From the IMG/VR virus record IMGVR_UViG_3300033074_000233, positions 64,001 to 128,000 of that record: a DNA stretch of 64,000 nt, one strand, 5' to 3'. This DNA is from a virus. Lineage: Duplodnaviria > Caudoviricetes. Each line of letters begins with the position of its first letter. Within the stretch, counting starts at the first letter, position 1. Below, one piece after another: positions 10,997 through 54,699 of this stretch. Position numbers and translations under genes: made by a program. A model generated the notes under the pieces. That model was given only the letters and a program-made list of their open reading frames with translations. It made no database searches and was not told where the DNA came from.

Positions 10997-11392
10997 ATGA
11001 AAAACAATCAACCGCTCAACGCGCAAGCCGTGAAAGACACTCGCTTTATTGATCGCGGCCTTCCACTCTGTGATACCCGTTGGCACGACAAAGATGGTCG
11101 TGTTACCCGCAAGGGTTTTCTCGACGGCTGCATCGAACGCTTCGACGTGAAAGGACGTGACGGCGTTACCGTAACAATTCGGTTGGTGCGTGACCAATTC
11201 GACAACGCAGCCAAGTATTTTTACACGGTTGAGTGTAGCGACAACTACACCCTGATGACGGGACTGTCCGTCAACGAGGTTGACTTCAATATGGACATAG
11301 GTCTGCACGTGACCTCGTCGCTCAAGGAAGCGCGCAAAGCCTGTACCTACTTCCGCAGCGGTAAGTTGAAGAAGAACGGCAAGTTCCAATAA
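10997..11392 (+). CDS. Hypothetical early protein
   Basis: GGAGG RBS. Confidence 0.65.
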   Translation: MKNNQPLNAQAVKDTRFIDRGLPLCDTRWHDKDGRVTRKGFLDGCIERFDVKGRDGVTVTIRLVRDQFDNAAKYFYTVECSDNYTLMTGLSVNEVDFNMDIGLHVTSSLKEARKACTYFRSGKLKKNGKFQ

Positions 11393-11416
11393 CCACTGGT
11401 TGTCAAGAGGACTCCA

Positions 11417-12352
11417 ATGTACAAGTTCTATTCCGCACTGCTGGACGTAAACCTGAAGAGCATGAGACTGGTTGACAAGTCTCTTGGCAAGTGGGACCAT
11501 GTGAAGGCCGCTCAGGCCTTCTTTGGTCAATTTCCGCACATGACCAACACACTGGACTTCCTCATTATGGCCGACGAGTGCGGCTATATCGAGGAAGATT
11601 TGGCCGTTTCCTACTTCGTCAAGGACGCCACATCACTTGAGGCAATCAACAGCCTGAAGATCGACAAGGTGGATTTTTCTCTCCTGCTTCAGGCAAGTGA
11701 GTTGTTTACGGTTGCCTTTCCATACCACTCGGACGTGTCACCTGTTCTGGTGATGATCTCCGACCTTGACGACTTCCAACGTCGTATCAAACGTGTGCAT
11801 CCCAGCACCTCTGGCCTCAAGGGTCAGGGTGTTGAGGACAAGTACAGTTTCCACATGGTCATGAAGTTTCCAGCCACACCAACTGTGCCTGAGTCCTACT
11901 CGCGCCTGTCTCTGCCTCTTGGCATCATCGGCAAAGCAATCCAGTGCAAAGACAATCAAGAGTTTGCTGCCTTGATTCCGCTGGACGAGCGCGTAGCCGT
12001 TGAGGGCCTCACCTTAGAAGAAACGGCGATGCAGTTCCGTGCTCTGCAATTCGTGGCCAAGTTCCTCGTGTATCGTGCAGGTGCACCTGATCGTTTTGCA
12101 GACGGCTGCCCGTCGAACGAAAAGAGTAGCAAGTTCGTTTCGGCTGCTGGCCATCGCAAGACGTTCTCGGTGCCAGCGTTGTCTGCGGCAACCGAGCACT
12201 ACCGCTGTGCCCACTTCCGCCAACTTCGTGCCGAACGCTACTACACCAAAGAGCACAAAGACAAGGCTGTTGGCAGTCGCATTGTGTTTGTCCATGATTC
12301 CGTGGTGAATGCCAAAGTAGATGACATAAAAACCGTAGAGGAGAAAACGTAA
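11417..12352 (+). CDS. Phage protein with C-terminal HxRxxH(F/W)R motif
   Basis: EHYRCAHFRQLR...IVFVHDSVV; GAGG RBS. Confidence 0.65.
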   Translation: MYKFYSALLDVNLKSMRLVDKSLGKWDHVKAAQAFFGQFPHMTNTLDFLIMADECGYIEEDLAVSYFVKDATSLEAINSLKIDKVDFSLLLQASELFTVAFPYHSDVSPVLVMISDLDDFQRRIKRVHPSTSGLKGQGVEDKYSFHMVMKFPATPTVPESYSRLSLPLGIIGKAIQCKDNQEFAALIPLDERVAVEGLTLEETAMQFRALQFVAKFLVYRAGAPDRFADGCPSNEKSSKFVSAAGHRKTFSVPALSAATEHYRCAHFRQLRAERYYTKEHKDKAVGSRIVFVHDSVVNAKVDDIKTVEEKT

Positions 12353-41903: not shown

Positions 41904-42857
41904 ATGAGTGTTACCTTTCAAGTAGAAGATTACATCCTGATTCAACAGGATAACAAGAAGCACCTAATACAAGTGGATAAGTCCACAGGCAAAACGGGTC
42001 GTGGTATCAAGCAAGACAAGTTCCCGTACGAGGAGAACGAAATCAAGTTTGAGGCCGATGAAGTAGTAGCCAACTATGGCAAGTATCCGAAGTCCTTTAT
42101 TCACGAGGCCTTCTATAAGGACTTCACTCATCCTGCTTTCGGCTCGGTCAACTTCTTTATGAAGGTGAACAAAGAGGCCAAAGAGGAGATCGAAAAGAAA
42201 CTCACCAAGTGCGCCAAGAAACTCAAGGAACACAACCTTGACGGCTTCCTTCCTGTAAACGTCGAGATACGTCCGTCGAAAGGAAAGATGCTTGGCCACT
42301 ACAAAACCTTCAAGCAAGAAGGTGAACTTGACGTTATGGCATTGCGTCCTTCAACAGACCATCCGCTTGAAGAAACTATCTATCACGAATGTGGTCACGG
42401 CATCTGGAAGCGACTGATTCACCACCGCAAGGCCAAAGCCGCGTGGATTCGTGAGTACAGTCACCATCTGGAAGTGCAACACCTCACCAGCAAGGACCTC
42501 AAGTCGCTGTTGAACGAATTGCTCTCGGCATCACAGACAGTATCAGACTTCAAGAAAGGCCTGAGCGAAAACGACCAGATGATCCTCAGGGAAATCCTGT
42601 CCTATATCAAGAAGTTCCATCGCCTCACAGTGATCGACCTCAACATGCTGCTGGAAAGCGGTGATGAGGATACAGTCACAGAGGTTTGGCCGTGTGATAC
42701 AATCGCACTGTCGAAGATCAAGGCAAACAACATTTCCAACTACAGCCTCAAGAGTGTAGAGGAATACTTCTCCGAGTGCTTGGCGTTCTACCTCAACGGT
42801 GGTAAACTGCCCAAGCATACCGCGAAACTGATGACTAAAACAATCGAATCTCTTTGA
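41904..42857 (+). CDS. Zincin-like metallopeptidase-motif protein
   Basis: YHECGH plus distal EEYFSE. Confidence 0.6.
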   Translation: MSVTFQVEDYILIQQDNKKHLIQVDKSTGKTGRGIKQDKFPYEENEIKFEADEVVANYGKYPKSFIHEAFYKDFTHPAFGSVNFFMKVNKEAKEEIEKKLTKCAKKLKEHNLDGFLPVNVEIRPSKGKMLGHYKTFKQEGELDVMALRPSTDHPLEETIYHECGHGIWKRLIHHRKAKAAWIREYSHHLEVQHLTSKDLKSLLNELLSASQTVSDFKKGLSENDQMILREILSYIKKFHRLTVIDLNMLLESGDEDTVTEVWPCDTIALSKIKANNISNYSLKSVEEYFSECLAFYLNGGKLPKHTAKLMTKTIESL

Positions 42858-42865
42858 GGTGAAAC

Positions 42866-43498
42866 ATGGCTAAGGAACTTGAAGTAAAAGACCTTAAGGA
42901 AGCCGATTACAATCCACGATGGATCAACGACAAACGGTTGAAGGCCCTGCAGAAGTCCATTGAGACCTTTGGTGATCTGTCGGGTGTTGTGTTTAACAGA
43001 CGTACCAAGCGCCTTGTTTCTGGTCACCAGCGACTCAAGACGGTACGTGACAAGAAGACTCGCATCGTTACCAAGCCATATAGCGACAAGTACGGTACCG
43101 TTGCTATTGGTCACATCGAGGTCAAGGATAAGAAAGGCGTCATCCAGATTCCATACCGTGAAGTAGACTGGGACGACAAGAAGATGGAGATGGCTGCCAA
43201 CATTGCAGCCAATGCTCAAGGTGGTCAGTTTGACAACAAGAAACTCGGCAAGGTTCTCGCCAAGTTGTCCAACGCTACCTTCGATGTTGAACTCGTAGGC
43301 CTTGATGACGTTACTGTCAAGACCCTTGTAAACGACTTTGAGAAGGCCTCAGGTGTTGTAGACGCAAAGGGTAAGCCAGTTGCTTCTGGCAAAGACAAGG
43401 GTAAGAGCAGCAAGTCCGAAGGCTTCCAGAAGATCAGTCCTGAGGACATGGAAGAAGACTTCGAGCACGAATGCCCGAAATGTAATTACAAGTGGTAG
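42866..43498 (+). CDS. ParB-like N-terminal domain protein with C-terminal Zn knuckle
   Basis: YNPR, SIETFG, VSGHQR; HECPKC. Confidence 0.85.
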   Translation: MAKELEVKDLKEADYNPRWINDKRLKALQKSIETFGDLSGVVFNRRTKRLVSGHQRLKTVRDKKTRIVTKPYSDKYGTVAIGHIEVKDKKGVIQIPYREVDWDDKKMEMAANIAANAQGGQFDNKKLGKVLAKLSNATFDVELVGLDDVTVKTLVNDFEKASGVVDAKGKPVASGKDKGKSSKSEGFQKISPEDMEEDFEHECPKCNYKW

Positions 43499-43506
43499 GT
43501 AACCGT

Positions 43507-44484
43507 ATGAAGTTTACTATGGCGAATGTCAACGCCAAGAAAAAGAAGTACACAGCCGTATCTACTTTCAGTGGCTGCGGTGGTTCGTCGCTTGGCTACA
43601 AGATGGCTGGCTTCAAGATGCTGTGGGCTAACGAGTTCATTCCAGCAGCACAGGATACCTATGAAGCCAATCACATAGGTACCTATCTGGACAAGCGCGA
43701 CATTCGCAAAGTAAAGCCAGAAGAAATCCTCAAGAAAATCGGCCTAAAGAAAGGCGAACTCGACCTGTTCGACGGTTCCCCACCATGCTCGGCCTTCAGT
43801 ACAGCAGGTGCGCGTGACAAAGGCTGGGGTACTGTAAAGAAGTATTCAGACTCCAAGCAGCGTGTGGATGACTTGTTCTATGAGTACATCCGCATTCTCA
43901 AGGGTCTACAGCCCAAAGTATTCGTAGCCGAGAACGTACCAGGTCTTGCGTCTGGTAAAGCCAAGGGGTATTTCGTAGAGATATTCCGTCTTCTCCAGGG
44001 TGCAGGTTACGTTGTAGAGGCCCGCATTCTGGATGCGTCACAACTGGGTGTACCGCAGGCGCGTAAGCGTCTGATCTTCGTTGGGGTACGCAAAGACCTG
44101 AAAATGAAGCCAGTGTTTCCGCAGCCCTTGTCCCGAGTAATTTCGGTCAATGACGTATGCCCAAACATCGCCTACATTAAGACCAAGAAAGACGGTCAGA
44201 TGAAGTACGTGCCTGCGAACATTCCTTCCCCTACCATTACGGCGAGCGATAGCACCAACTCGGAGACAGCCCAGTTCTCCTGCGGTGGCTTTATCGAAAC
44301 CCAAGATGGAGAGCAGCGCAAGTACAAGATCAGCGAACTCAAGAAGATTTTTACCTTCCCACCTGACTTTGAACTCACTGGTAAGTTTGAGCAGAAGTGG
44401 GAACGTCTAGGTAGATCAGTTCCGCCCATGTTCATGTATCATGTGGCCAAGACAATCGGCAAAGAAATTCTGGATAAACTATAA
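43507..44484 (+). CDS. C5-cytosine DNA methyltransferase fold, predicted carboxymethyltransferase
   Basis: FSGCGG, GSPPC, ENV, QARKR; motif X reads GRSVPP instead of GN(S/A)V. Confidence 0.9.
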   Translation: MKFTMANVNAKKKKYTAVSTFSGCGGSSLGYKMAGFKMLWANEFIPAAQDTYEANHIGTYLDKRDIRKVKPEEILKKIGLKKGELDLFDGSPPCSAFSTAGARDKGWGTVKKYSDSKQRVDDLFYEYIRILKGLQPKVFVAENVPGLASGKAKGYFVEIFRLLQGAGYVVEARILDASQLGVPQARKRLIFVGVRKDLKMKPVFPQPLSRVISVNDVCPNIAYIKTKKDGQMKYVPANIPSPTITASDSTNSETAQFSCGGFIETQDGEQRKYKISELKKIFTFPPDFELTGKFEQKWERLGRSVPPMFMYHVAKTIGKEILDKL

Positions 44485-44494
44485 GGAGAACTCC

Positions 44495-45547
44495 ATGAAC
44501 ATTAAGCGTCCGTTCCTCATGTACGTCGGCAACACCTCAGTTCTAGTAGAAATCAAAACGGCTGCTGGTGTTATTGAGTGGTGTCCAGAAGACGTTGTTG
44601 GTGTGTACACAACAGGTCCTGACGCGCTTACGTTTGGTAAGCCTGTTATCAATGACTTCAATGCCGCAGTGGCTGCTGGCGCCAAGACCTTTGTGGTTGG
44701 CTCTTCACCTACGAGTGGTATGATCGACGACTCGTGGATTCAGATGTTCTTCAATGCAATGGACGCTGGTCTGGACATTGCCTGTGGTCTACATGAAAAA
44801 CTCAACGACATTTCCTTCTTGGTAGACTATGCTAGAAAGGCAGGCGTAGTTATGCACGACTTCCGTCACCGTGAGGACGTGTACCCGAAAGGCACAGGCA
44901 TGAAGCGCCCTGGTATGCGTCTACTCACGGTAGGTACGGACTGTGCTTGCGGTAAGAAGTTCACTGCCATATCCATTGCGCGTGAGTGCAAGAAGCGTGG
45001 GCTTGCAGCCGACTTCCGTAGTACAGGACAAACTGGCTACCTGATTTCGTCTAGCGGCATTAACAACGACACGATTCCTGCTGACTTCCTTTCGGGTGCT
45101 GCTGAGTGGCTGTCGCCTGCGAACGCACCTGATCACTGGGATGTTATCGAGGGGCAAGGCGCTCTTTTTCATCCAGCCTATGCTGGAGGCAGTCTGTCCC
45201 TGCTTATGGGCAGTCAGCCCGACCTCATCGTTCTCTGCCATGATCCTGCGCGTGAGAAAGTACGTGGCCCAAAAGGCATGGACTTCAAGTTGATGTCCCT
45301 GGAAGAGGAGATCGAAGGCAATCTCCTCATGGGTAGTCGCACTAATCCAAAGATTCGACTTGGTGCTATCTCCATAAACGGTCGCTACGCTTTTCCTGAG
45401 GGCAATACGACTGCTTATCTGGATTACAAGAATGGGTTGATGGAACGCTTCGGCGTTCCTGTGTTTGACCCCCTTGTAGATGGCGTGTCATCCATAGTTG
45501 ACGTTATGGAATGTAAGAGCATGACGGTAAACAATGAAAAAGCCTAA
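44495..45547 (+). CDS. DUF1611 / DgcN-family P-loop protein
   Basis: GTDCACGKKFT, TGQTG, DFLSGAAE, IEGQGALFHPAY. Confidence 0.9.
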   Translation: MNIKRPFLMYVGNTSVLVEIKTAAGVIEWCPEDVVGVYTTGPDALTFGKPVINDFNAAVAAGAKTFVVGSSPTSGMIDDSWIQMFFNAMDAGLDIACGLHEKLNDISFLVDYARKAGVVMHDFRHREDVYPKGTGMKRPGMRLLTVGTDCACGKKFTAISIARECKKRGLAADFRSTGQTGYLISSSGINNDTIPADFLSGAAEWLSPANAPDHWDVIEGQGALFHPAYAGGSLSLLMGSQPDLIVLCHDPAREKVRGPKGMDFKLMSLEEEIEGNLLMGSRTNPKIRLGAISINGRYAFPEGNTTAYLDYKNGLMERFGVPVFDPLVDGVSSIVDVMECKSMTVNNEKA

Positions 45548-46397
45548 GAACGTACCCAAACCACCAGCGAACGTACACGATGCCTTGCTGGATGAGTTGC
45601 GCTTTGTGCGTGACTCTGGTAAGCGCGCGGCTGTATTCCTCAGCGGTGGCGTAGATAGCCACTCGGTCTTGTTTGCACTGATAGAACTGGGCGTTCCTGT
45701 TACCGCGTATTCATTTACGCTGGACACCCACGAGAGTCGTGACTTCAAGATTGCCAAGAAGACCTGTGAGACAATGCACGTTCCATTTGTGCCAATAGTC
45801 CTTTCGACCGACGTAGCCAAGTTGAAGAAGTACGTTATCTACGTCGTGAAGAAACTGGGTGCGTACAAGAAGGTGGACATTGAATGCCTGTGGCCTATGC
45901 TGTCTACGTTGAAGCAGGTCGAGGAGGAATTTGTCATTACGGCTACCAGTGCTGACAGTCACTTTGCTTTGTCCAAGAAAGCCTGTATGCACTACAAGGA
46001 CAAGGTGGACTACTACAGGACAATCGTTTTCAAGAAGGCGAATACGGGACAGCGCCTTCATATGAAAAGTGAGTGTGCGAAACTGGGTAAGACCTATTTC
46101 ACGCCTTACGATACCACCCGCATGTGCTCGGAGTTGTACGGATATACATGGGACGAATTAAATAAGCCCAAGCAGAAGAATCCTATTCGCATTGCCTTTC
46201 CTGATCAGTTTGAACGCTGTAAAGTGACTCAGCACACCAACCTGCAATTAGGCGATAGCGGCATTGCCAAACACTTCGAGAAGTTGCTTGAAACCGACTT
46301 AAACACCCGGAAATATAAGTCGGTTATCGGCGTTTATAACGAGTTGGCGCGCAAGTATCTTAAAGTGACAGAAACAGAGGAAAACGACGATGACTGA
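45534..46397 (+). CDS. Asparagine-synthetase-like PP-loop ATP-dependent amide ligase (no glutaminase domain)
   Basis: VFLSGGVDS; SADSHF at the usual GADELF position; 287 aa. Confidence 0.8.
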   Translation: MKKPKNVPKPPANVHDALLDELRFVRDSGKRAAVFLSGGVDSHSVLFALIELGVPVTAYSFTLDTHESRDFKIAKKTCETMHVPFVPIVLSTDVAKLKKYVIYVVKKLGAYKKVDIECLWPMLSTLKQVEEEFVITATSADSHFALSKKACMHYKDKVDYYRTIVFKKANTGQRLHMKSECAKLGKTYFTPYDTTRMCSELYGYTWDELNKPKQKNPIRIAFPDQFERCKVTQHTNLQLGDSGIAKHFEKLLETDLNTRKYKSVIGVYNELARKYLKVTETEENDDD

Positions 46398-47109
46398 CGA
46401 CAAAGATAGTGTTGTACCAGGAAATAAGTGGGAATTTGATGCAAGCGTTGCGGCCTGTTTCGATGACATGCTTTCACGCAGCATTCCTTCATACAAGATG
46501 ATGCGTCAGACCACATATGCCCTTGGTACCAACATCATCGGAAATATGACGGCCCCTAAAGTTGTTGACTTGGGTGCTTCGCGTGGTGAGGCTATTTGGG
46601 AGTTCGCCGCACGTTATCCGAGAGGTGATTTCTATGCCCTGGAGATTTCCGATCCAATGCTGGACGTAATGCGAAATCGCTTTCAAGGTCAGACCAACCT
46701 GCATGTATGGCGTGAAGACCTTCGCGTCTGCAACGTCCTGCGTGAGATCAAAAACACCACGGTCGTTCTGTCGATTCTGACTCTCCAGTTTATTCCTATC
46801 GAGTACCGTCAGGCCCTTGTGCAGACCGTATTCGACAACTTGGACAAGGGCGGCGCCTTCATCCTTGTAGAGAAGGTTCTTGGCAATACGCCTTCAATCA
46901 ACTCCAAGTTCGTAGAGGAATACTACGAGTTCAAGCGTTCCAATGGATATTCCTACGAGGATATCGAGCGCAAGAAGGCTTCTCTGGAAGGCGTGTTGGT
47001 TCCGATCACTGCGAAGTGGAACGAGGACATGCTTTACTCAGTGGGCTTCCGTCAAATTGACTGTTTCTATCGCCACCTGAACTTTGCTGGCTGGATCGCA
47101 ATCAAATGA
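46390..47109 (+). CDS. cmoA: CmoA-like carboxy-SAM synthase
   Basis: WEFDASVA..FDDMLSRSIPSY, DLGASRG, LTLQF, LVEK, LEGVL, LNFAG. Confidence 0.85.
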   Translation: MTDDKDSVVPGNKWEFDASVAACFDDMLSRSIPSYKMMRQTTYALGTNIIGNMTAPKVVDLGASRGEAIWEFAARYPRGDFYALEISDPMLDVMRNRFQGQTNLHVWREDLRVCNVLREIKNTTVVLSILTLQFIPIEYRQALVQTVFDNLDKGGAFILVEKVLGNTPSINSKFVEEYYEFKRSNGYSYEDIERKKASLEGVLVPITAKWNEDMLYSVGFRQIDCFYRHLNFAGWIAIK

Positions 47110-47549
47110 TGAATCCATACAAACACCTCCTTACCAAGATGAAGTATCTGGTAAATGAGGACAAACGAGTAGACGACGCCGAGAAGGCAGACTTTCAATG
47201 GAGTATGGTCTTCACCAGAGGACCAGTGAAGTTCATGATAGGCAAAGGTGGTGTCAATACCATCTTCTACATCATGGGAGACAAGCGTGAGGTTTGCTTC
47301 CCTGATGATGCCTTGAAACTCCTTGAAAAGAAGTCGCTCGACAAGTACATTGCCTATGCGATCTATTCCAAGAAAAAGGAATTGGTTGCTGGGCCTTTCT
47401 TGTTTCACGATGATGCGATGGCACTACGCGCAGGTAAAGGCCAGTTCTTTATTGGCATTAAGGCAAGTGGGAAACTTGTTCCACTCTATGCTGCGAAGCC
47501 TAACCTGTTCGACAAACTATCTTGGTCTCCTGTAGTAGAAAAGAAATAA
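47106..47549 (+). CDS. Hypothetical protein
   Basis: ATGA overlap. Confidence 0.6.
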   Translation: MMNPYKHLLTKMKYLVNEDKRVDDAEKADFQWSMVFTRGPVKFMIGKGGVNTIFYIMGDKREVCFPDDALKLLEKKSLDKYIAYAIYSKKKELVAGPFLFHDDAMALRAGKGQFFIGIKASGKLVPLYAAKPNLFDKLSWSPVVEKK

Positions 47550-47560
47550 CGAGGTGAAAC

Positions 47561-49036
47561 ATGCCTGCTCAACGCATTACATACCTAACAAGCAAACCGT
47601 TTACGCTTAGCCAACTGATGGCCAAGACTCCGCGTAACATCCAGTACAACGCGGATGACACTCGCATTAAGCAGGCACGCAAGATCATTGACAAGGATAC
47701 CAACCAGCCAGCAGTAGTAGCCGTTGTTTACTCGACGCACGATGCTGATGGTAATCCAACACGCAATCCAATTATGCACAAGTGCTACATCCTGAGCCTT
47801 GATGCAAACAGGAAGCCGATTAACCAGTGCCACGTTCACCTTTCCTGCGACTGCTTTACGGGAGACACGCGGGTTCTTACGCCGTCTGGTTGGAAAACTA
47901 TATACGAACTAGCCGAACCCCTAGAACTAGGTAAGTTCGAGACTGACTATATCGTCAACGGAAAAGTAGTAAAAGGTTCTGCACCCTTTTATAAGGGTAA
48001 GTCAAAGGTATGGGAAATAGCCTTAGATACAGGATTAAAGATTAAGGCCACGAAAAATCAGAAATTCCTAGTAACACGAAAAGATGGAATTCGTAAATGG
48101 AGAACTGTTAAGAATCTTTCTGTTGGTGACTGGCTTGTTCCTAATTCAACAGAAAACATACCAGAAGTAGATGTAACCAGTAAAGTCTATCAGGATGCAC
48201 ACCTAATAGGCGTGATAATGGGCGACGGAACTGTTTTCTCTAGTGGCTCTCCTGATTTACAACTGTATGGAGATAAACAAACTGAAATTTGGAGTCTCAT
48301 ACAAAAACATCCAGCCGTTAAGGGTAAAAAGGTTGTCCAGCGAGACGGAATACGGGTAGAATTTAATCATACTGGTATGGAGCTTTTCAGTAAATTTAAG
48401 TACGAAAACAAGAAGAATGTACTGTTGTCTTCTCCAGAGTCTATCTTTGGATTCTTGTCAGGTCTAACTAACGCAGATGGAAACTGCGGACGGAATGGTA
48501 TTGTAATTGACGGAGATCTATCTTACCTTAAAATTCTGTTAGACGAACTACTTGCTCTTGGGCTTGTTGGTCCTAAACTGTCCTTATCCGATACAAATCG
48601 TAAGGGCACTCTGACAAATTACGGTGAGAGAACAAAGGATATGTATACACTTGTTATACCTGTTCCGACTATAAGACTAATAAAAAAGAACTTGCTACTG
48701 ACAGAAAAACACCAGAAGAACCTAGAAAAACAAGAAAAAAAGAGGCCACAAAATCGCGTGCCTAAGACTAAAATTACAGGTATTACTTGTGTAGGTAAAA
48801 AGCATGTGTATGATATAACTGTACCTGAAGGCACCAGATTTGTGGCTGAGGGAGTTATAGTCCATAATTGCGCCTACTTCATGTACACGCTGGAGTATGC
48901 TCTTAACAAACGTGGCAATGCAGACATTATCTTCTCCAACGGAAAGCCTGCTGTGGTTCGTAATCCAAGCAACAAAGGCTTTCTGTGCAAGCACCTCTAC
49001 CATCTGGCTGAATCGCTTGTCTCCAGAGGTATGTGA
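47561..49036 (+). CDS. SWIM Zn-finger protein interrupted by an intein
   Basis: Exteins ..LSCD|CAYF...CKHL give CxC-n-CxH; about 152 aa after splicing. Confidence 0.85.
   Translation: MPAQRITYLTSKPFTLSQLMAKTPRNIQYNADDTRIKQARKIIDKDTNQPAVVAVVYSTHDADGNPTRNPIMHKCYILSLDANRKPINQCHVHLSCDCFTGDTRVLTPSGWKTIYELAEPLELGKFETDYIVNGKVVKGSAPFYKGKSKVWEIALDTGLKIKATKNQKFLVTRKDGIRKWRTVKNLSVGDWLVPNSTENIPEVDVTSKVYQDAHLIGVIMGDGTVFSSGSPDLQLYGDKQTEIWSLIQKHPAVKGKKVVQRDGIRVEFNHTGMELFSKFKYENKKNVLLSSPESIFGFLSGLTNADGNCGRNGIVIDGDLSYLKILLDELLALGLVGPKLSLSDTNRKGTLTNYGERTKDMYTLVIPVPTIRLIKKNLLLTEKHQKNLEKQEKKRPQNRVPKTKITGITCVGKKHVYDITVPEGTRFVAEGVIVHNCAYFMYTLEYALNKRGNADIIFSNGKPAVVRNPSNKGFLCKHLYHLAESLVSRGM
47852..48868 (+). mobile_element. 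Intein with LAGLIDADG endonuclease (339 aa)
   Basis: CFTGDT start, IVHN/C end, LIGVIMGDG and LSGLTNADG. Confidence 0.92.
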
Positions 49037-50050: not shown

Positions 50051-50098
50051 TTCTGTAAATTGAGTTCGCTTCACTTCACACCCATCTGGGAGATTGTT

Positions 50099-51613
50099 AT
50101 GACACGCGCAAAGTTCAATACGAAAAAGACGTTTCAAGATTCCAAACCGCGCACAGGCGGTGATGACAACAAGAAACTGGAAGATTTGGTAGACACTATC
50201 AAAATGCCAGAGAAGGAATACGTTTCGATGCGCCTTATTGGCCCAGCGATTCCGTATGCACAACACTGGATCGAGTTCCACTCGTCCAAAGGCAAGGACG
50301 TAAACATCCCGAAAATCTGTCTTGCGTTCGATCCTGATACGGAAGACTTTGATTCGTCCAAGAAGTGCCCGTATTGCGACAACGGCAACAAGGCTAGCGT
50401 AGCCTACCTGACCAACGCAATCATTCGTGATATTCAGGAGAATGAGCCTGCTAAGAAAGGCAAGATGACTGACAGTGAGAAGAAGACTGGCTTCAAGGAG
50501 AAATCCTCGAAGACTTGGACCCCTGTCAAAGTCGTGCGTATCACTTCGACGGTTGCGAGCAAGTTCCAGAACCTGTCCAACGCCAACAAGGTCAAGGACA
50601 AGAAGTCTGGCGAGACTGTTGCCAAGCCTCTCTCGGACGAGAAGTACGGTCGTGATATCCAGATGCTGTACGATTCCAAGGCAGCAGGCTCGGCCAAGTA
50701 CGACGTACAGAAGGGCGATGAGCGTACTCCTCTGACCGAAGAGGAGAGTGAATACCTTGTATGGAATATCGAAGGTCTGTTCGAGCCAGAAGACCTGTCG
50801 CGCGCCAAGCAAGAGGCTGCCAAGTTCTTCGGCAAAGGCGGCAAGAAAGGCGAAGACGCTGACTACGACGAAGAAGATGACACGCCAAAAGGCAAGAAAG
50901 GCAAGAAGGCGAAAGATGAGTACCTAGATAGCGATGAGGACGACGAGCCGAAAGCCAAGAAGGGCAAAAAGAGTAAGAAGCCTGTCGATAGCGACGAGGA
51001 CGATGCGGACTCGGACGATGACGCGGCTGATTCTGACGACGATGCAGATTCGGATGAAGACGAACCGAAGTCCAAGAAGAAGCCTGCGAAGAAAGGTAAG
51101 CCCGGCCTGAGCGCGAAAGATTCGGACGACGACGGTTTCAGCGATGAAGACGACGCTGATGACGAAGACGAAGACTCGGACGAAGACGAACCGAAGAGCA
51201 AGAAAGGCAAGAAGCCTGCAGCCAAGAAGGGTAAGAAAGCAGCAGACTCGGACGAAGACGAAGACGAAGACTCCGATGAAGACGCTGATGATTCGGATGA
51301 GGATGAAGACTCTGATGAAGATGAGCCGAAGTCCAAGAAGAAACCTGCGAAGAAAGGCAAGAAGGCCGCTGACTCTGACGAAGATGAAGATGAAGACTCC
51401 GATGAGGATGATCCCAGGGCAAAGAAAGGCAAGAAGCCAGCAAAGAAGGGTAAAAAGGCCGCTGACTCTGATGAGGACGACGTAGACCTCGACGATCTCG
51501 ATGAAGACGAAGAAGAGGACGAGCCGAAGTTCAAGAAAGGCAAGAAGGACAAGAAAGCCAAAGGTAAAAAGTCCAAGAAGGACGAAGACTCGGACGACGA
51601 TGTGCCTTTTTGA
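50099..51613 (+). CDS. Single-stranded DNA-binding protein (gp32-like) with very long D/E-K tail
   Basis: HWIEF, ICL, CPYC, YLTNAII, GRDI; tail ends DDDVPF. Confidence 0.75.
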   Translation: MTRAKFNTKKTFQDSKPRTGGDDNKKLEDLVDTIKMPEKEYVSMRLIGPAIPYAQHWIEFHSSKGKDVNIPKICLAFDPDTEDFDSSKKCPYCDNGNKASVAYLTNAIIRDIQENEPAKKGKMTDSEKKTGFKEKSSKTWTPVKVVRITSTVASKFQNLSNANKVKDKKSGETVAKPLSDEKYGRDIQMLYDSKAAGSAKYDVQKGDERTPLTEEESEYLVWNIEGLFEPEDLSRAKQEAAKFFGKGGKKGEDADYDEEDDTPKGKKGKKAKDEYLDSDEDDEPKAKKGKKSKKPVDSDEDDADSDDDAADSDDDADSDEDEPKSKKKPAKKGKPGLSAKDSDDDGFSDEDDADDEDEDSDEDEPKSKKGKKPAAKKGKKAADSDEDEDEDSDEDADDSDEDEDSDEDEPKSKKKPAKKGKKAADSDEDEDEDSDEDDPRAKKGKKPAKKGKKAADSDEDDVDLDDLDEDEEEDEPKFKKGKKDKKAKGKKSKKDEDSDDDVPF

Positions 51614-52029: not shown

Positions 52030-52095
52030 TTTCTCCCGTGCGCGTATTTGGAGAGTGGCCTGAACACCCACTCTCCTTCTTTTCACGAGGTACAC

Positions 52096-54699
52096 ATGGC
52101 AATTAAGAAAGGTAAGGACGTAAAAGAGAAGAAGGTCAAGAAGACCAAGGAAAAGCCAGAGAAGAAAGGCAAGAAGGCGAAAGCCGAGAAAGAACCCAAG
52201 GTCAAGAAAGGCAAGAAAGGCCGAGTGATTGATGGTGACACTGGCGAGGTCCTGGATGACGATGACGGCATTGCGCTTCGTGCTCACGCTGCGTCCGAAG
52301 ACATGGATGCGATGCTTGACGCAATCGAGAAGGACGTTGGTATTGTTGCCGTTACCGCAGGTAGTCGTAACACAACCAGCACTGGCCTGCTTTCGCTTGA
52401 CCTGATGCTTTGTGGTGGCCTTGTCTCTGGTGGCTGGTATACCTTCTTCGGCGGTGAGCAATCGTCTAAGTCCACGCTGGCGATGACACAGATCGCACGT
52501 GCGGCTATGCAAGGCAAGATTCCGATCCTGTTGTACTTCGACTTCGAGGGTTCACTCTCCGAGTCGCTGGACTACATGCTGAGTATTGCACGGGCACAAG
52601 GTTTCAAGGGTAACTTGCAAGACCTCTTTGGCATTCAAGACCCGAAGACGGGCAAGTACGTCAAGAAGCCGTTGATTCGTCGGTATCAGGAAAGCGTTGC
52701 CGAGCGTTTCTTCGACCTCGTTGCCAAGCTGGAGCGTAGTCTGCCGGACAAACTCTATCGCAACGAAAAGTGGTGGTACGTTTACGAACATACCAAGGTC
52801 AATATCTCCAAGTACAGCGCCATCTCGGATAAGCAGTTGTACAAGCAGACTGGCAAACTCTGGGTTGAGACTGACAACGGCCACCCACAGGCTATGATAG
52901 TGGTTGACTCCTATCCGGCAATGCTTCCAGAGCGTCTGGATGAGGATGATGCTGGTGCGGGTATGGCTGCACAGGCCCGTATGTTCTCGGACAACATTAA
53001 GCGCGTCAAAGGCAAAATGTCGTCCAAGCGCATTGTAATCATGGGCGTGAACCAGTTGCGTAAAGCACCTATGGTTAAGTACGGCTGTCTACACGGAGAT
53101 ACCCAGATTCCGTTCGTAGATGGTACGTCGCACAGCATTAAGTCTATCGTGGAGCAAAAGATTGAAGGTGAGGTCTGGTCTCTAAACGAGGACACGGACA
53201 AGATAGAGCCTGCAAAGATTACAGGCTGGTTTAACAACGGAGAGGTAGACAAAAAATCGGACTGGATTACGATTACTACCACTAACGTAGTAGAGACACC
53301 CAATGGTGTTGCCTCTGTTACGGTTACGCCTGACCACAAAATCCTTACCCGACGTGGATGGAAAGCCGCGCGTAAGTTGAAAGTTGGCGATAAAGTCCTG
53401 AGTAAGTACGCATCTATCTACGAGGGAGAAATGCGCTCGGTGCTTGCTGGTGTCCTAGCTGGGGACTCTTGTATTGTTGGTGATTGCAGGAATAGTCACC
53501 TTAGACTTCAAGACTCGCAGAATGCCGAGTACGTTGCTTGGAAGCGCGACCTGTTGAAGGACGTTCTATCCTTCAACTTGCGCGGAACTAAGAAGCAAAC
53601 TTGGATTTCCAACAGGTATTACCAGTTGTCCAAGTTGAAAGAAAAACTCGGAGAGCGTGACCCAACTAAGTTCGCTAACGTGTTTGATGCCCGCAGCCTT
53701 GCTATTTTCTACATGGATGACGGTCATTTCAGGTCTGAGAGGAACACAAGTAGTATTTGTATCGGTCGTTTTAAAGGTAAAGAAAAACTTGAGCAGGTAG
53801 CAGAAATGTTGTCTGAAAAGTTCTGTGTGTCTCCAGTAGTTCGCGGCAAAAACCTTATGTTTTCTGCCGAGGATACGCGAGTTATGCACAGTCTAATTGC
53901 CAAGTATGTGCCAGAGCCTATGCAGTACAAACTTCTTCCTGAGTACAGGGGCAAGTATAAGGCGCATAAACTCAAGGCAAAAATCTCTACCAAGAACATC
54001 TGGTGTGAGATAAGTTCCATAGACAAAGGCTCAGACAGGAAGTTCAGGTCTAGGACGAAATACGACATTGAAGTGGCTAGCCATAGTAACTATATGGCGG
54101 GTAACGTAGCCAACGGATTCATTGTCCATAATTCGCCGGAATATGAGCCCGGAGGGGAGGCTGTCAAGTTCTTCTCGGACGTTCGTATCCGTATGGCCTC
54201 GCGTTCAGTTCTGGGTGGCACAGGTCAGATCGAGGAAGAACCGTCAGTAGAGAAACCGGGTGGCAAGGACGTGTACCGTTACGTCAACATGCGCGCAGCC
54301 AAGAACAAGTTGTCTGTACCGAACCTTGAAGGCTGGGCCCGTATCTGGGTGCGTGATGCCTACGGTAAAGCGCGTGGCTACGATCCGGTGTTCGATACCT
54401 TCACCTTCCTCAAGGAACTGAAACTGATTTCGGGTACCAAGAAAAACCTCGTTATCAAGTTGAAGGAGTTTGAAGGCAGCAAAGGCCTGACGTGGGCACA
54501 GTTCAAGATGCTGTGCATTGGCGAAAAGAAAATGGTGTTGCAGGTATTCAAGGACGCCAAGATCAAAGCCAAGCCGTTCAAACTGCGTGAGCGCCTGTTC
54601 AAGATGGTGTCTACGGGTAAGGCGACTGAGACCTACTTTGCTGCGCTTGCTGATGGCAGTGGCAAAGACAAGGACGATGAGGCACCGAGCGATGAATGA
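52096..54699 (+). CDS. recA: RecA/UvsX-like recombinase with intein
   Basis: STGLLSLD..L.GG, GGEQSSKST, DFEG, VVDS, QARMFS, NQLR, PGGEAVKFFSDVR, KNK. Confidence 0.92.
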   Translation: MAIKKGKDVKEKKVKKTKEKPEKKGKKAKAEKEPKVKKGKKGRVIDGDTGEVLDDDDGIALRAHAASEDMDAMLDAIEKDVGIVAVTAGSRNTTSTGLLSLDLMLCGGLVSGGWYTFFGGEQSSKSTLAMTQIARAAMQGKIPILLYFDFEGSLSESLDYMLSIARAQGFKGNLQDLFGIQDPKTGKYVKKPLIRRYQESVAERFFDLVAKLERSLPDKLYRNEKWWYVYEHTKVNISKYSAISDKQLYKQTGKLWVETDNGHPQAMIVVDSYPAMLPERLDEDDAGAGMAAQARMFSDNIKRVKGKMSSKRIVIMGVNQLRKAPMVKYGCLHGDTQIPFVDGTSHSIKSIVEQKIEGEVWSLNEDTDKIEPAKITGWFNNGEVDKKSDWITITTTNVVETPNGVASVTVTPDHKILTRRGWKAARKLKVGDKVLSKYASIYEGEMRSVLAGVLAGDSCIVGDCRNSHLRLQDSQNAEYVAWKRDLLKDVLSFNLRGTKKQTWISNRYYQLSKLKEKLGERDPTKFANVFDARSLAIFYMDDGHFRSERNTSSICIGRFKGKEKLEQVAEMLSEKFCVSPVVRGKNLMFSAEDTRVMHSLIAKYVPEPMQYKLLPEYRGKYKAHKLKAKISTKNIWCEISSIDKGSDRKFRSRTKYDIEVASHSNYMAGNVANGFIVHNSPEYEPGGEAVKFFSDVRIRMASRSVLGGTGQIEEEPSVEKPGGKDVYRYVNMRAAKNKLSVPNLEGWARIWVRDAYGKARGYDPVFDTFTFLKELKLISGTKKNLVIKLKEFEGSKGLTWAQFKMLCIGEKKMVLQVFKDAKIKAKPFKLRERLFKMVSTGKATETYFAALADGSGKDKDDEAPSDE
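53086..54132 (+). mobile_element. Intein with LAGLIDADG endonuclease (349 aa) in RecA loop L2
   Basis: KYG|CLHGDT...TPDH...IVHN|SPE; LAGVLAGD, FYMDDG. Confidence 0.92.

Follow-up and report, generated by a model that had tools for sequence, protein, structure and literature searches.

The 64,000-nucleotide window analyzed here, positions 64,001 to 128,000 of the IMG/VR record IMGVR_UViG_3300033074_000233, is part of a 216-kb linear virus record with an estimated completeness of 84%, and its genes are most like those of jumbo phages of the PaBG / Lu11 / Y3 group. It carries an operon that very probably hypermodifies the DNA of a PaBG/Y3-like jumbo phage after replication, with a core of the enzymes CmoA, CmoX, and CmoY, which make 5-carboxymethylcytosine (5cxmC) and convert it to an amide. 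Directly upstream of cmoY lies a gene for a DUF1611 protein. On balance, we favor the view that this protein works with its dedicated CmoY as a two-part ligation module and that the pair puts an undescribed hypermodified cytosine, possibly containing a D-amino acid or an N-acyl group, into jumbo-phage DNA. Our literature searches, which covered few subscription journals, turned up no report of DUF1611 in DNA modification; the DUF1611-CmoY pairing is absent from the literature searched, and it predicts an undescribed base. The features of the locus are as follows.

42866-43498, plus strand: ParB-N-like protein of 210 amino acids, the usual companion of cmoX (PHROG 620, E 6e-33; Pfam match weak).
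43507-44484, plus strand: CmoX, predicted DNA cytosine C5-carboxymethyltransferase of 325 amino acids (PF00145, E 6e-54; ATG start, with an in-frame GTG at 43492).
44413-44415, plus strand: AGA codon for Arg303 (counted from the ATG), which replaces the Asn of motif X and aligns with SpCmoX Arg350.
44495-45547, plus strand: phage-clade DUF1611/DgcN-like protein of 350 amino acids (PF07755, E 6e-55; PF17396, E 5e-16; ATG after GGAG).
45534-46397, plus strand: CmoY-type glutaminase-less amide ligase, AsnB-like, of 287 amino acids (PF00733, E 7e-7; glutaminase domain absent).
46390-47109, plus strand: CmoA, predicted synthase of carboxy-S-adenosylmethionine (Cx-SAM), of 239 amino acids (TIGR00740, E 5e-40, under the family cut-off).
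47106-47549, plus strand: conserved companion gene of 147 amino acids (ATGA overlap with the cmoA stop; PHROG 23597).

The first five genes are packed on one strand in the order given by the initial annotation (ParB-like, C5-methyltransferase, DUF1611, AsnB-like ligase, CmoA), with gaps of 8 and 10 nucleotides followed by overlaps of 14 and 8 nucleotides. The set has a sixth member, whose ATG overlaps the stop codon of cmoA and which is inherited together with the other genes. A peptidase-like gene upstream (41904-42857) was kept out of the module because it also occurs in jumbo phages that do not have the companion gene. Scans for promoters and terminators gave signals at shuffle level only.

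The route from Cx-SAM to 5cxmC and an amide, to which the initial annotation had pointed, has been published for Synechococcus phage S-B43 (Yang et al., December 2025, PMC12783734). According to that paper, the S-B43 CmoA makes Cx-SAM, CmoX forms 5cxmC at GC sites by means of Arg350, which binds the Cx-SAM carboxylate, and CmoY ligates glycine with ATP. The paper also lists 5,615 CmoX candidates by an SPPC motif plus the Arg, reports ParBc neighbors, and leaves other amines, which other ligase clusters may use, still to be identified. The best PDB match of the window CmoX is the S-B43 enzyme (SpCmoX, 8YF3; E 1e-67), to which it is 44% identical, with 58% identity to the CmoX of Pseudomonas phage PaBG. 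Its catalytic Cys94 lies within an intact SPPC, and the exchange of the motif X Asn for Arg noticed at the outset places Arg303 in the SpCmoX Arg350 column of the alignment. The protein, encoded by the only C5-methyltransferase gene of the genome, is thus a predicted CmoX on both published grounds. Every cmoX read in a DUF1611-carrying phage has the Arg. The ParB-like protein is 49% identical to the one encoded upstream of cmoX in PaBG.

The PDB matches of the window CmoA are YecO/CmoA. An early caveat was that the position of Arg199 in Escherichia coli CmoA appears to be Lys here, and Lys196 does sit in that column. In the sequence alignment, SpCmoA, an active enzyme, has Glu at this position, and the CmoA of metagenomic loci L014 and L190 also has Lys; in addition, the E. 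coli host CmoA can feed CmoX with Cx-SAM in vivo (PMC12783734). The substitution therefore appears to matter little, and the residue does not seem to define the CmoA of this system. SpCmoA is reported to be 10 times faster than E. coli CmoA (PMC12783734).

These observations bear on whether the operon might encode an ordinary or inactive methyltransferase, leaving DNA with 5-methylcytosine or no modification. The Lys in place of Arg199, the CmoA score under the family cut-off, and a genome that still avoids AGCT and many six-base palindromes would all fit such an enzyme. Yet both features of CmoX are present, wild-type SpCmoX takes Cx-SAM only (PMC12783734), and all frames of the operon are unbroken, with 96-99% conservation in a second assembly, a near twin. 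We therefore regard this explanation as very improbable. AGCT is avoided genome-wide (122 occurrences against 1450 expected, a ratio of 0.08), with ratios of 0.06-0.15 for many six-base palindromes, and GGCC, GCGC, and CGCG are not avoided. Because related DUF1611 phages do not avoid AGCT, we read its avoidance as the restriction history of this phage with its host; some sites evidently go unprotected by the modification. Word counts of the genome did not reveal the CmoX target motif.

Several variants of the core were seen elsewhere. In L014, a chorismate mutase gene (36-317) lies directly upstream of cmoA and likely supplies prephenate for Cx-SAM; the genome of the window has no chorismate mutase match. 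Some DUF1611 operons have a divergent CmoA type, 21-25% identical to that of the window, followed by a HAD/PNKP-family gene (L009:5683-6354, L015:10440-11138, L016:10400-11074). The cmoX gene is interrupted next to the catalytic motif in L017 (5123-7423, intein annotated) and in the AD1, Y3, and SNUABM phages (L193-L196). In the marine phages L181 and L182, a single cmoY and a single cmoA are accompanied by a tandem pair of cmoX paralogues, each of which has the Arg. A partial record of Alcaligenes phage Afa-NA1 (L280) has a cmoA homologue (45%) beside a portal gene, with no cmoY or cmoX neighbor in the stretch read.

The ligase of the window has a PP-loop, SGGVDS, and a fold matching AsnB and beta-lactam synthetase, and it keeps all catalytic residues. 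It is 39% identical to the PaBG CmoY, 31% to SpCmoY, and 26% to the ligase of the Alexandraviruses. That a glutaminase-less ligase amidates 5cxmC, as initially proposed, agrees with the CmoY amidation published for S-B43 (PMC12783734), with the qualification that the window ligase belongs to a subfamily with an altered loop. This subfamily comprises 44 clusters of 52-99% identity, followed by a drop to 48%, and is monophyletic in the tree. Its active-site loop reads SAT[SA]ADSH, with Ala or Thr-Ala replacing Gly at position 137 in 43 of the 44 clusters; the Gly is present in SpCmoY and in all 76 homologues outside the subfamily. The loops of the window CmoY and SpCmoY differ at three positions, and the two proteins fall on separate branches.

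Homologue searches returned 55-59 clusters of phage-type DUF1611 with an NNDT signature, split from 67 bacterial DgcN-like rows by a tree branch with 98% support in the Shimodaira-Hasegawa-like approximate likelihood ratio test (SH-aLRT). Two or three further proteins of the NNDT type came from a profile search across all representatives; their genomic contexts lie outside the synteny counts. The search for DUF1611 beside cmoA in phages that had been suggested at the start recovered the module in metagenomic loci and in cultured Alexandraviruses. In every phage copy read, whether from the near twin, one of eleven independent metagenomic loci, or a cultured Alexandravirus, DUF1611 was upstream of cmoY. 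The two genes adjoin directly, with junctions of -32 to +5 nucleotides in the 14 loci measured, except in SNUABM_23-like phages, where a racemase gene intervenes. Among GenBank phages, DUF1611 and the divergent ligase fall on the same 34 records (24 genomes), and none of the 24 other cmoY records has DUF1611. Given that the CmoA proteins of AD1 and Y3 are 86% identical but their ligases only 21%, DUF1611 and its ligase appear to have been exchanged as one unit.

We also matched the longest contig of each ligase cluster by size to contigs with phage DUF1611, an indirect measure of co-occurrence that linked 25 of the 44 clusters of the window subfamily and 0 of 76 outside it. Because this measure is indirect, two unmatched subfamily members were looked up blind, and both had DUF1611 directly upstream. 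As controls, DUF1611 was found in 0 of 87 IMG/VR cmoY loci, some of them short or redundant, and cmo genes in 0 of 160 bacterial DUF1611 loci, where the commonest neighbor is DgcA-like (69 loci). IMG/VR scans for phage DUF1611 returned an Alexandravirus copy only; metagenome and genome scans returned only bacterial DgcN, used as controls. Synteny, co-segregation, and co-divergence with the ligase strongly support the early suggestion that DUF1611 is part of the base chemistry, and we consider such a role probable.

What DUF1611 might do is suggested by its fold. The structural model (predicted local distance difference test score 92) matches DgcN (PDB 7XRJ) from end to end (Z 40.9, 38% identity), with the fold of DUF1611_N plus DUF1611_C present. 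Residues 1-125 resemble the Rossmann-type coenzyme A (CoA)-binding domain of succinyl-CoA synthetase alpha (Z 10.7, root-mean-square deviation 3.2 over 114 residues), a likeness seen by structure comparison alone, as the sequence profile of this domain does not reach succinyl-CoA synthetase. Residues 134-345 form a SIMIBI P-loop domain (Z 13-14 to ParA/MinD, Z 12 to BioD). Its Walker A, Gly153-Lys154-Lys155, is missing the Ser/Thr, a state kept in >90% of phage and bacterial homologues. DgcN is classed as a D-glutamate N-acetyltransferase, EC 2.3.1.312 (PMC11747546), and a remote relative has been proposed elsewhere as an N-succinylglutamate synthase; the chemistry shown for the family is thus transfer from acyl-CoA to the amine of an amino acid. 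Since the protein combines a CoA-binding N-domain with a P-loop that does not have the Walker A Ser/Thr, a predicted acyl-CoA-dependent N-acyltransferase fits the model better than an ATP ligase.

The initial annotation had hinted at the latter, with DUF1611 making or adding a further amine or amino-acid unit by means of a BioD-like P-loop. Such an enzyme would couple another amine or amino acid to the free carboxylate that CmoY leaves, so that glycine, for example, would be followed by D-Ala or D-Glu. The BioD-like fold is real: the domain resembles BioD, cobyrinate diamide synthase, CTP synthase, and cyclic 2,3-diphosphoglycerate synthetase (Z 10-14), and the P-loop Gly-Lys and an EGQG motif are invariant. 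The route drawn from it is nevertheless less well supported than acyl transfer. Phage and bacterial members alike have Lys, not Ser/Thr, following the Gly-Lys, the only characterized member of the family is an acetyl-CoA transferase, the N-domain is of the CoA-binding type, and a simple downstream extension would not require a changed CmoY pocket. An ATP-dependent second ligation is, in our judgment, quite improbable.

Acyl-CoA transfer would not make the phage protein DgcN proper. Against the DgcN NCBIfam model NF041892, the window copy scores 355.7 bits and the AD1 copy 281.8 bits, under the cut-off of 480. As noted initially, DUF1611 stands without DgcA: no DgcA-type protein (PF13378) was matched in the 216-kb genome at its estimated 84% completeness, nor beside any phage DUF1611 copy read. 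The protein nevertheless probably works like DgcN. The phage branch keeps the invariant DgcN residues of both domains, with phage-specific changes beside the core Asp192 (Asn190, Asn191, and Thr193), at Gly232 and Ser235, and in three conserved basic residues gained (Arg126, Lys132, and Arg282), which perhaps reflect a changed acceptor or even contact with DNA. Most phage members have lost two features that never vary in the CoA domain of bacterial members, a Gly-Gly and a Trp; the window protein keeps one Gly and the Trp. Prediction of a DUF1611-CmoY complex (score 0.00) gave no answer and was used as evidence neither way.

We propose the following pathway. CmoA would make Cx-SAM from S-adenosylmethionine and prephenate, CmoX would move the carboxymethyl group to C5 of cytosine in a short motif, yielding 5cxmC, and CmoY would adenylate the carboxylate and form an amide. 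These steps are ascribed to the window because the catalytic residues are conserved with the S-B43 homologues, where the steps were shown (PMC12783734). In a new fourth step, the window CmoY would take an amine other than glycine, and DUF1611 would N-acylate the spare amino group of the arm, most simply by acetylation from an acyl-CoA; its substrate would be the still unligated amino acid or, once ligation is complete, the DNA. Such an arm needs two amines, and the likely product would therefore be 5cxmC carrying, in amide linkage, an N-acylated lysine, ornithine, or diaminobutyrate that may have the D configuration; the modification presumably blocks host nucleases. This specific chemistry, a non-glycine amine attached by CmoY and N-acylation by DUF1611, is tentative, and we doubt it slightly more than we trust it.

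Several observations weigh against the proposal. The known acceptor of DgcN is free D-Glu, which has no second amine, and a changed acceptor must be assumed. No diamine-making gene lies nearby, and the genome has no arginase or racemase match. The loss of Gly-Gly and Trp from the CoA domain could mean another donor. The phage DUF1611 branch has partners from two distinct lineages of CmoY, the Alexandravirus ligase being of the other lineage, such that the co-occurrences represent only two phylogenetically independent pairings, not dozens. Finally, in two phage contigs of 222 and 230 kb (L189:8001-9892 and L283:6000-7819), the DUF1611-cmoY pair has no cmoX or cmoA within 7-8 kb.

The last point would suit an operon that makes the 5cxmC amide while DUF1611, alone or with CmoY, serves D-amino-acid or acyl-CoA metabolism or a target other than DNA. 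A Y3-type ligase cassette likewise has no cmoX or cmoA nearby in its annotated region. However, cmoX lies ~18 kb away with its Arg intact in AD1, Y3, and the SNUABM phages, so such distance is normal, and the exact co-replacement with the ligase, the co-divergent ligase loop, and the absence of a DgcA partner all argue for a role in the base. We find a function outside the base rather improbable.

A different division of labor between the two proteins is an acyl relay, in which CmoY activates the carboxymethyl group on DNA as an adenylate that may be passed on to CoA. DUF1611, still preferring the acceptors of DgcN, would then bring in D-Ala, D-Ser, or D-Glu, and the product would be an acetyl-free D-aminoacyl amide of 5cxmC. 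DgcN acylates a D-amino acid, a racemase-fold gene lies between DUF1611 and cmoY in 8 Erwinia genomes, and a D-cysteine-desulfhydrase-family gene follows the L191 operon. The altered CmoY loop and a phage DUF1611 with both a changed CoA-domain loop and basic residues (R126, K132, and R282) would also be in keeping with a relay. The genome has no match to alanine racemase (PF01168); the host itself has D-Ala and D-Glu among its metabolites, and this would account for the missing racemase. Against this, we know of no precedent for a DNA-linked acyl-CoA, and the racemase could equally well act on the D-Lys or D-Orn of the N-acylation proposal. In addition, CmoY keeps all catalytic residues, and the S-B43 CmoY finishes the amide alone (PMC12783734). 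We regard a relay as unlikely.

The genes around the pair vary. A homologue of the 147-amino-acid companion lies between cmoA and cmoY in PaBG (26% identity, E 2e-12), and homologues occur in the cmo neighborhood of PaBG, AD1, Y3, and most DUF1611 loci. The AD1 homologue (150 amino acids) matches 53 GenBank records, all of jumbo phages with cmoA and cmoY. The companion thus appears to be co-inherited with the cmo module; it had no Pfam, PDB, or Atlas match, and kinesin matches at E 0.05 or worse were ignored. In 12 Erwinia records (8 genomes), DUF1611 and cmoY are separated by an alanine-racemase-fold gene that has its lysine for pyridoxal phosphate (PLP). A gene of 420 amino acids between cmoA and DUF1611 in 16 genomes is glycosyltransferase-like, with weak similarity (E 1e-7) to annotated glycosyltransferases. 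Both are found in Erwinia phage pEa_SNUABM_23, where they are annotated as hypothetical:

L004:4718-5980: glycosyltransferase-like gene.
L004:7008-7943: alanine-racemase-like gene.

In L191, a D-cysteine desulfhydrase-family PLP enzyme (11058-12035) comes right after a six-gene operon ordered as in the window. These arrangements fit a variable tailoring slot, and its genes hint at D-amino acids, acylated diamino acids, or glycosylated base variants.

Downstream of the operon, the window carries two intein-containing genes, for a SWIM-type zinc-finger protein (47561-49036) and RecA (52048-54699), and a gene (50060-51613) for a probable single-strand-binding protein whose long tail is of low complexity, with Asp/Glu/Ser and Lys-rich repeats in alternation.

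The published account of the 5cxmC pathway gives a single product and leaves other amines open (PMC12783734); the locus studied here names a tailoring gene and a ligase subfamily. Cultured phages offer a natural series, from cmoA-DUF1611-cmoY (AD1, Alexandra) through a version with an added glycosyltransferase (SNUABM_13) to one that also has a racemase (SNUABM_23), to be set against the DUF1611-free Y3 and Yoloswag. If our reading is correct, it would add to the known DNA bases, perhaps with some that contain D-amino acids, and provide enzymes with which selected groups could be attached to DNA, and DUF1611, a poorly understood family, would gain its first role in nucleic-acid chemistry. With the Erwinia racemase and glycosyltransferase options, the slot would be a combinatorial assembly line on a carboxymethyl handle. 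The question also bears on the nuclease resistance of jumbo phages considered for biocontrol of plant-pathogenic bacteria.

Among known systems, DgcN of the DgcN-DgcA pathway, reportedly established as a D-glutamate N-acetyltransferase by Yu and colleagues in 2023, shares with the window DUF1611 the two-domain fold over its full length and the invariant residues. The window protein differs from DgcN in its separate phage branch, its score under the NCBIfam cut-off, its coupling to cmoY rather than DgcA, and its substitutions near the core Asp and within the loop of the CoA domain. The Alexandravirus phages (Dickeya AD1, Erwinia Alexandra, and the pEa_SNUABM series) share cmoA, DUF1611, cmoY, the 150-amino-acid gene, and a CmoX with the Arg. 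Their ligase is of the other lineage, however, their cmoX is ~18 kb off and intein-sized, and some add glycosyltransferase-like and racemase-like genes. AD1_017 was listed as a DUF1611 protein with no function given (Day et al., 2018), and the papers searched contain no chemical study of the Alexandravirus cassettes. The cmo module of Erwinia phage Y3 has no DUF1611 and instead has an oxygenase after the ligase. PaBG, with the closest cultured CmoX and CmoY, has the order ParB-cmoX-cmoA-companion-cmoY, also without DUF1611.

The S-B43 system, with 5cxmC and 5-glycylcarboxymethylcytosine as products, is the characterized reference (PMC12783734; PDB 8YF3), and the portions of its text and supplements that were searched contain no DUF1611, PF07755, or racemase. 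The window has all three of its enzymes, at 30-44% identity, including the SPPC Cys, the motif X Arg, the glutaminase-less AsnB-type ligase, and the ParB-like neighbor, and by its sequence it belongs to the CmoA/CmoX/CmoY system. To this shared core, it adds a DUF1611 protein coupled to cmoY, a distinct ligase subfamily with an altered loop, and the 147-amino-acid companion.

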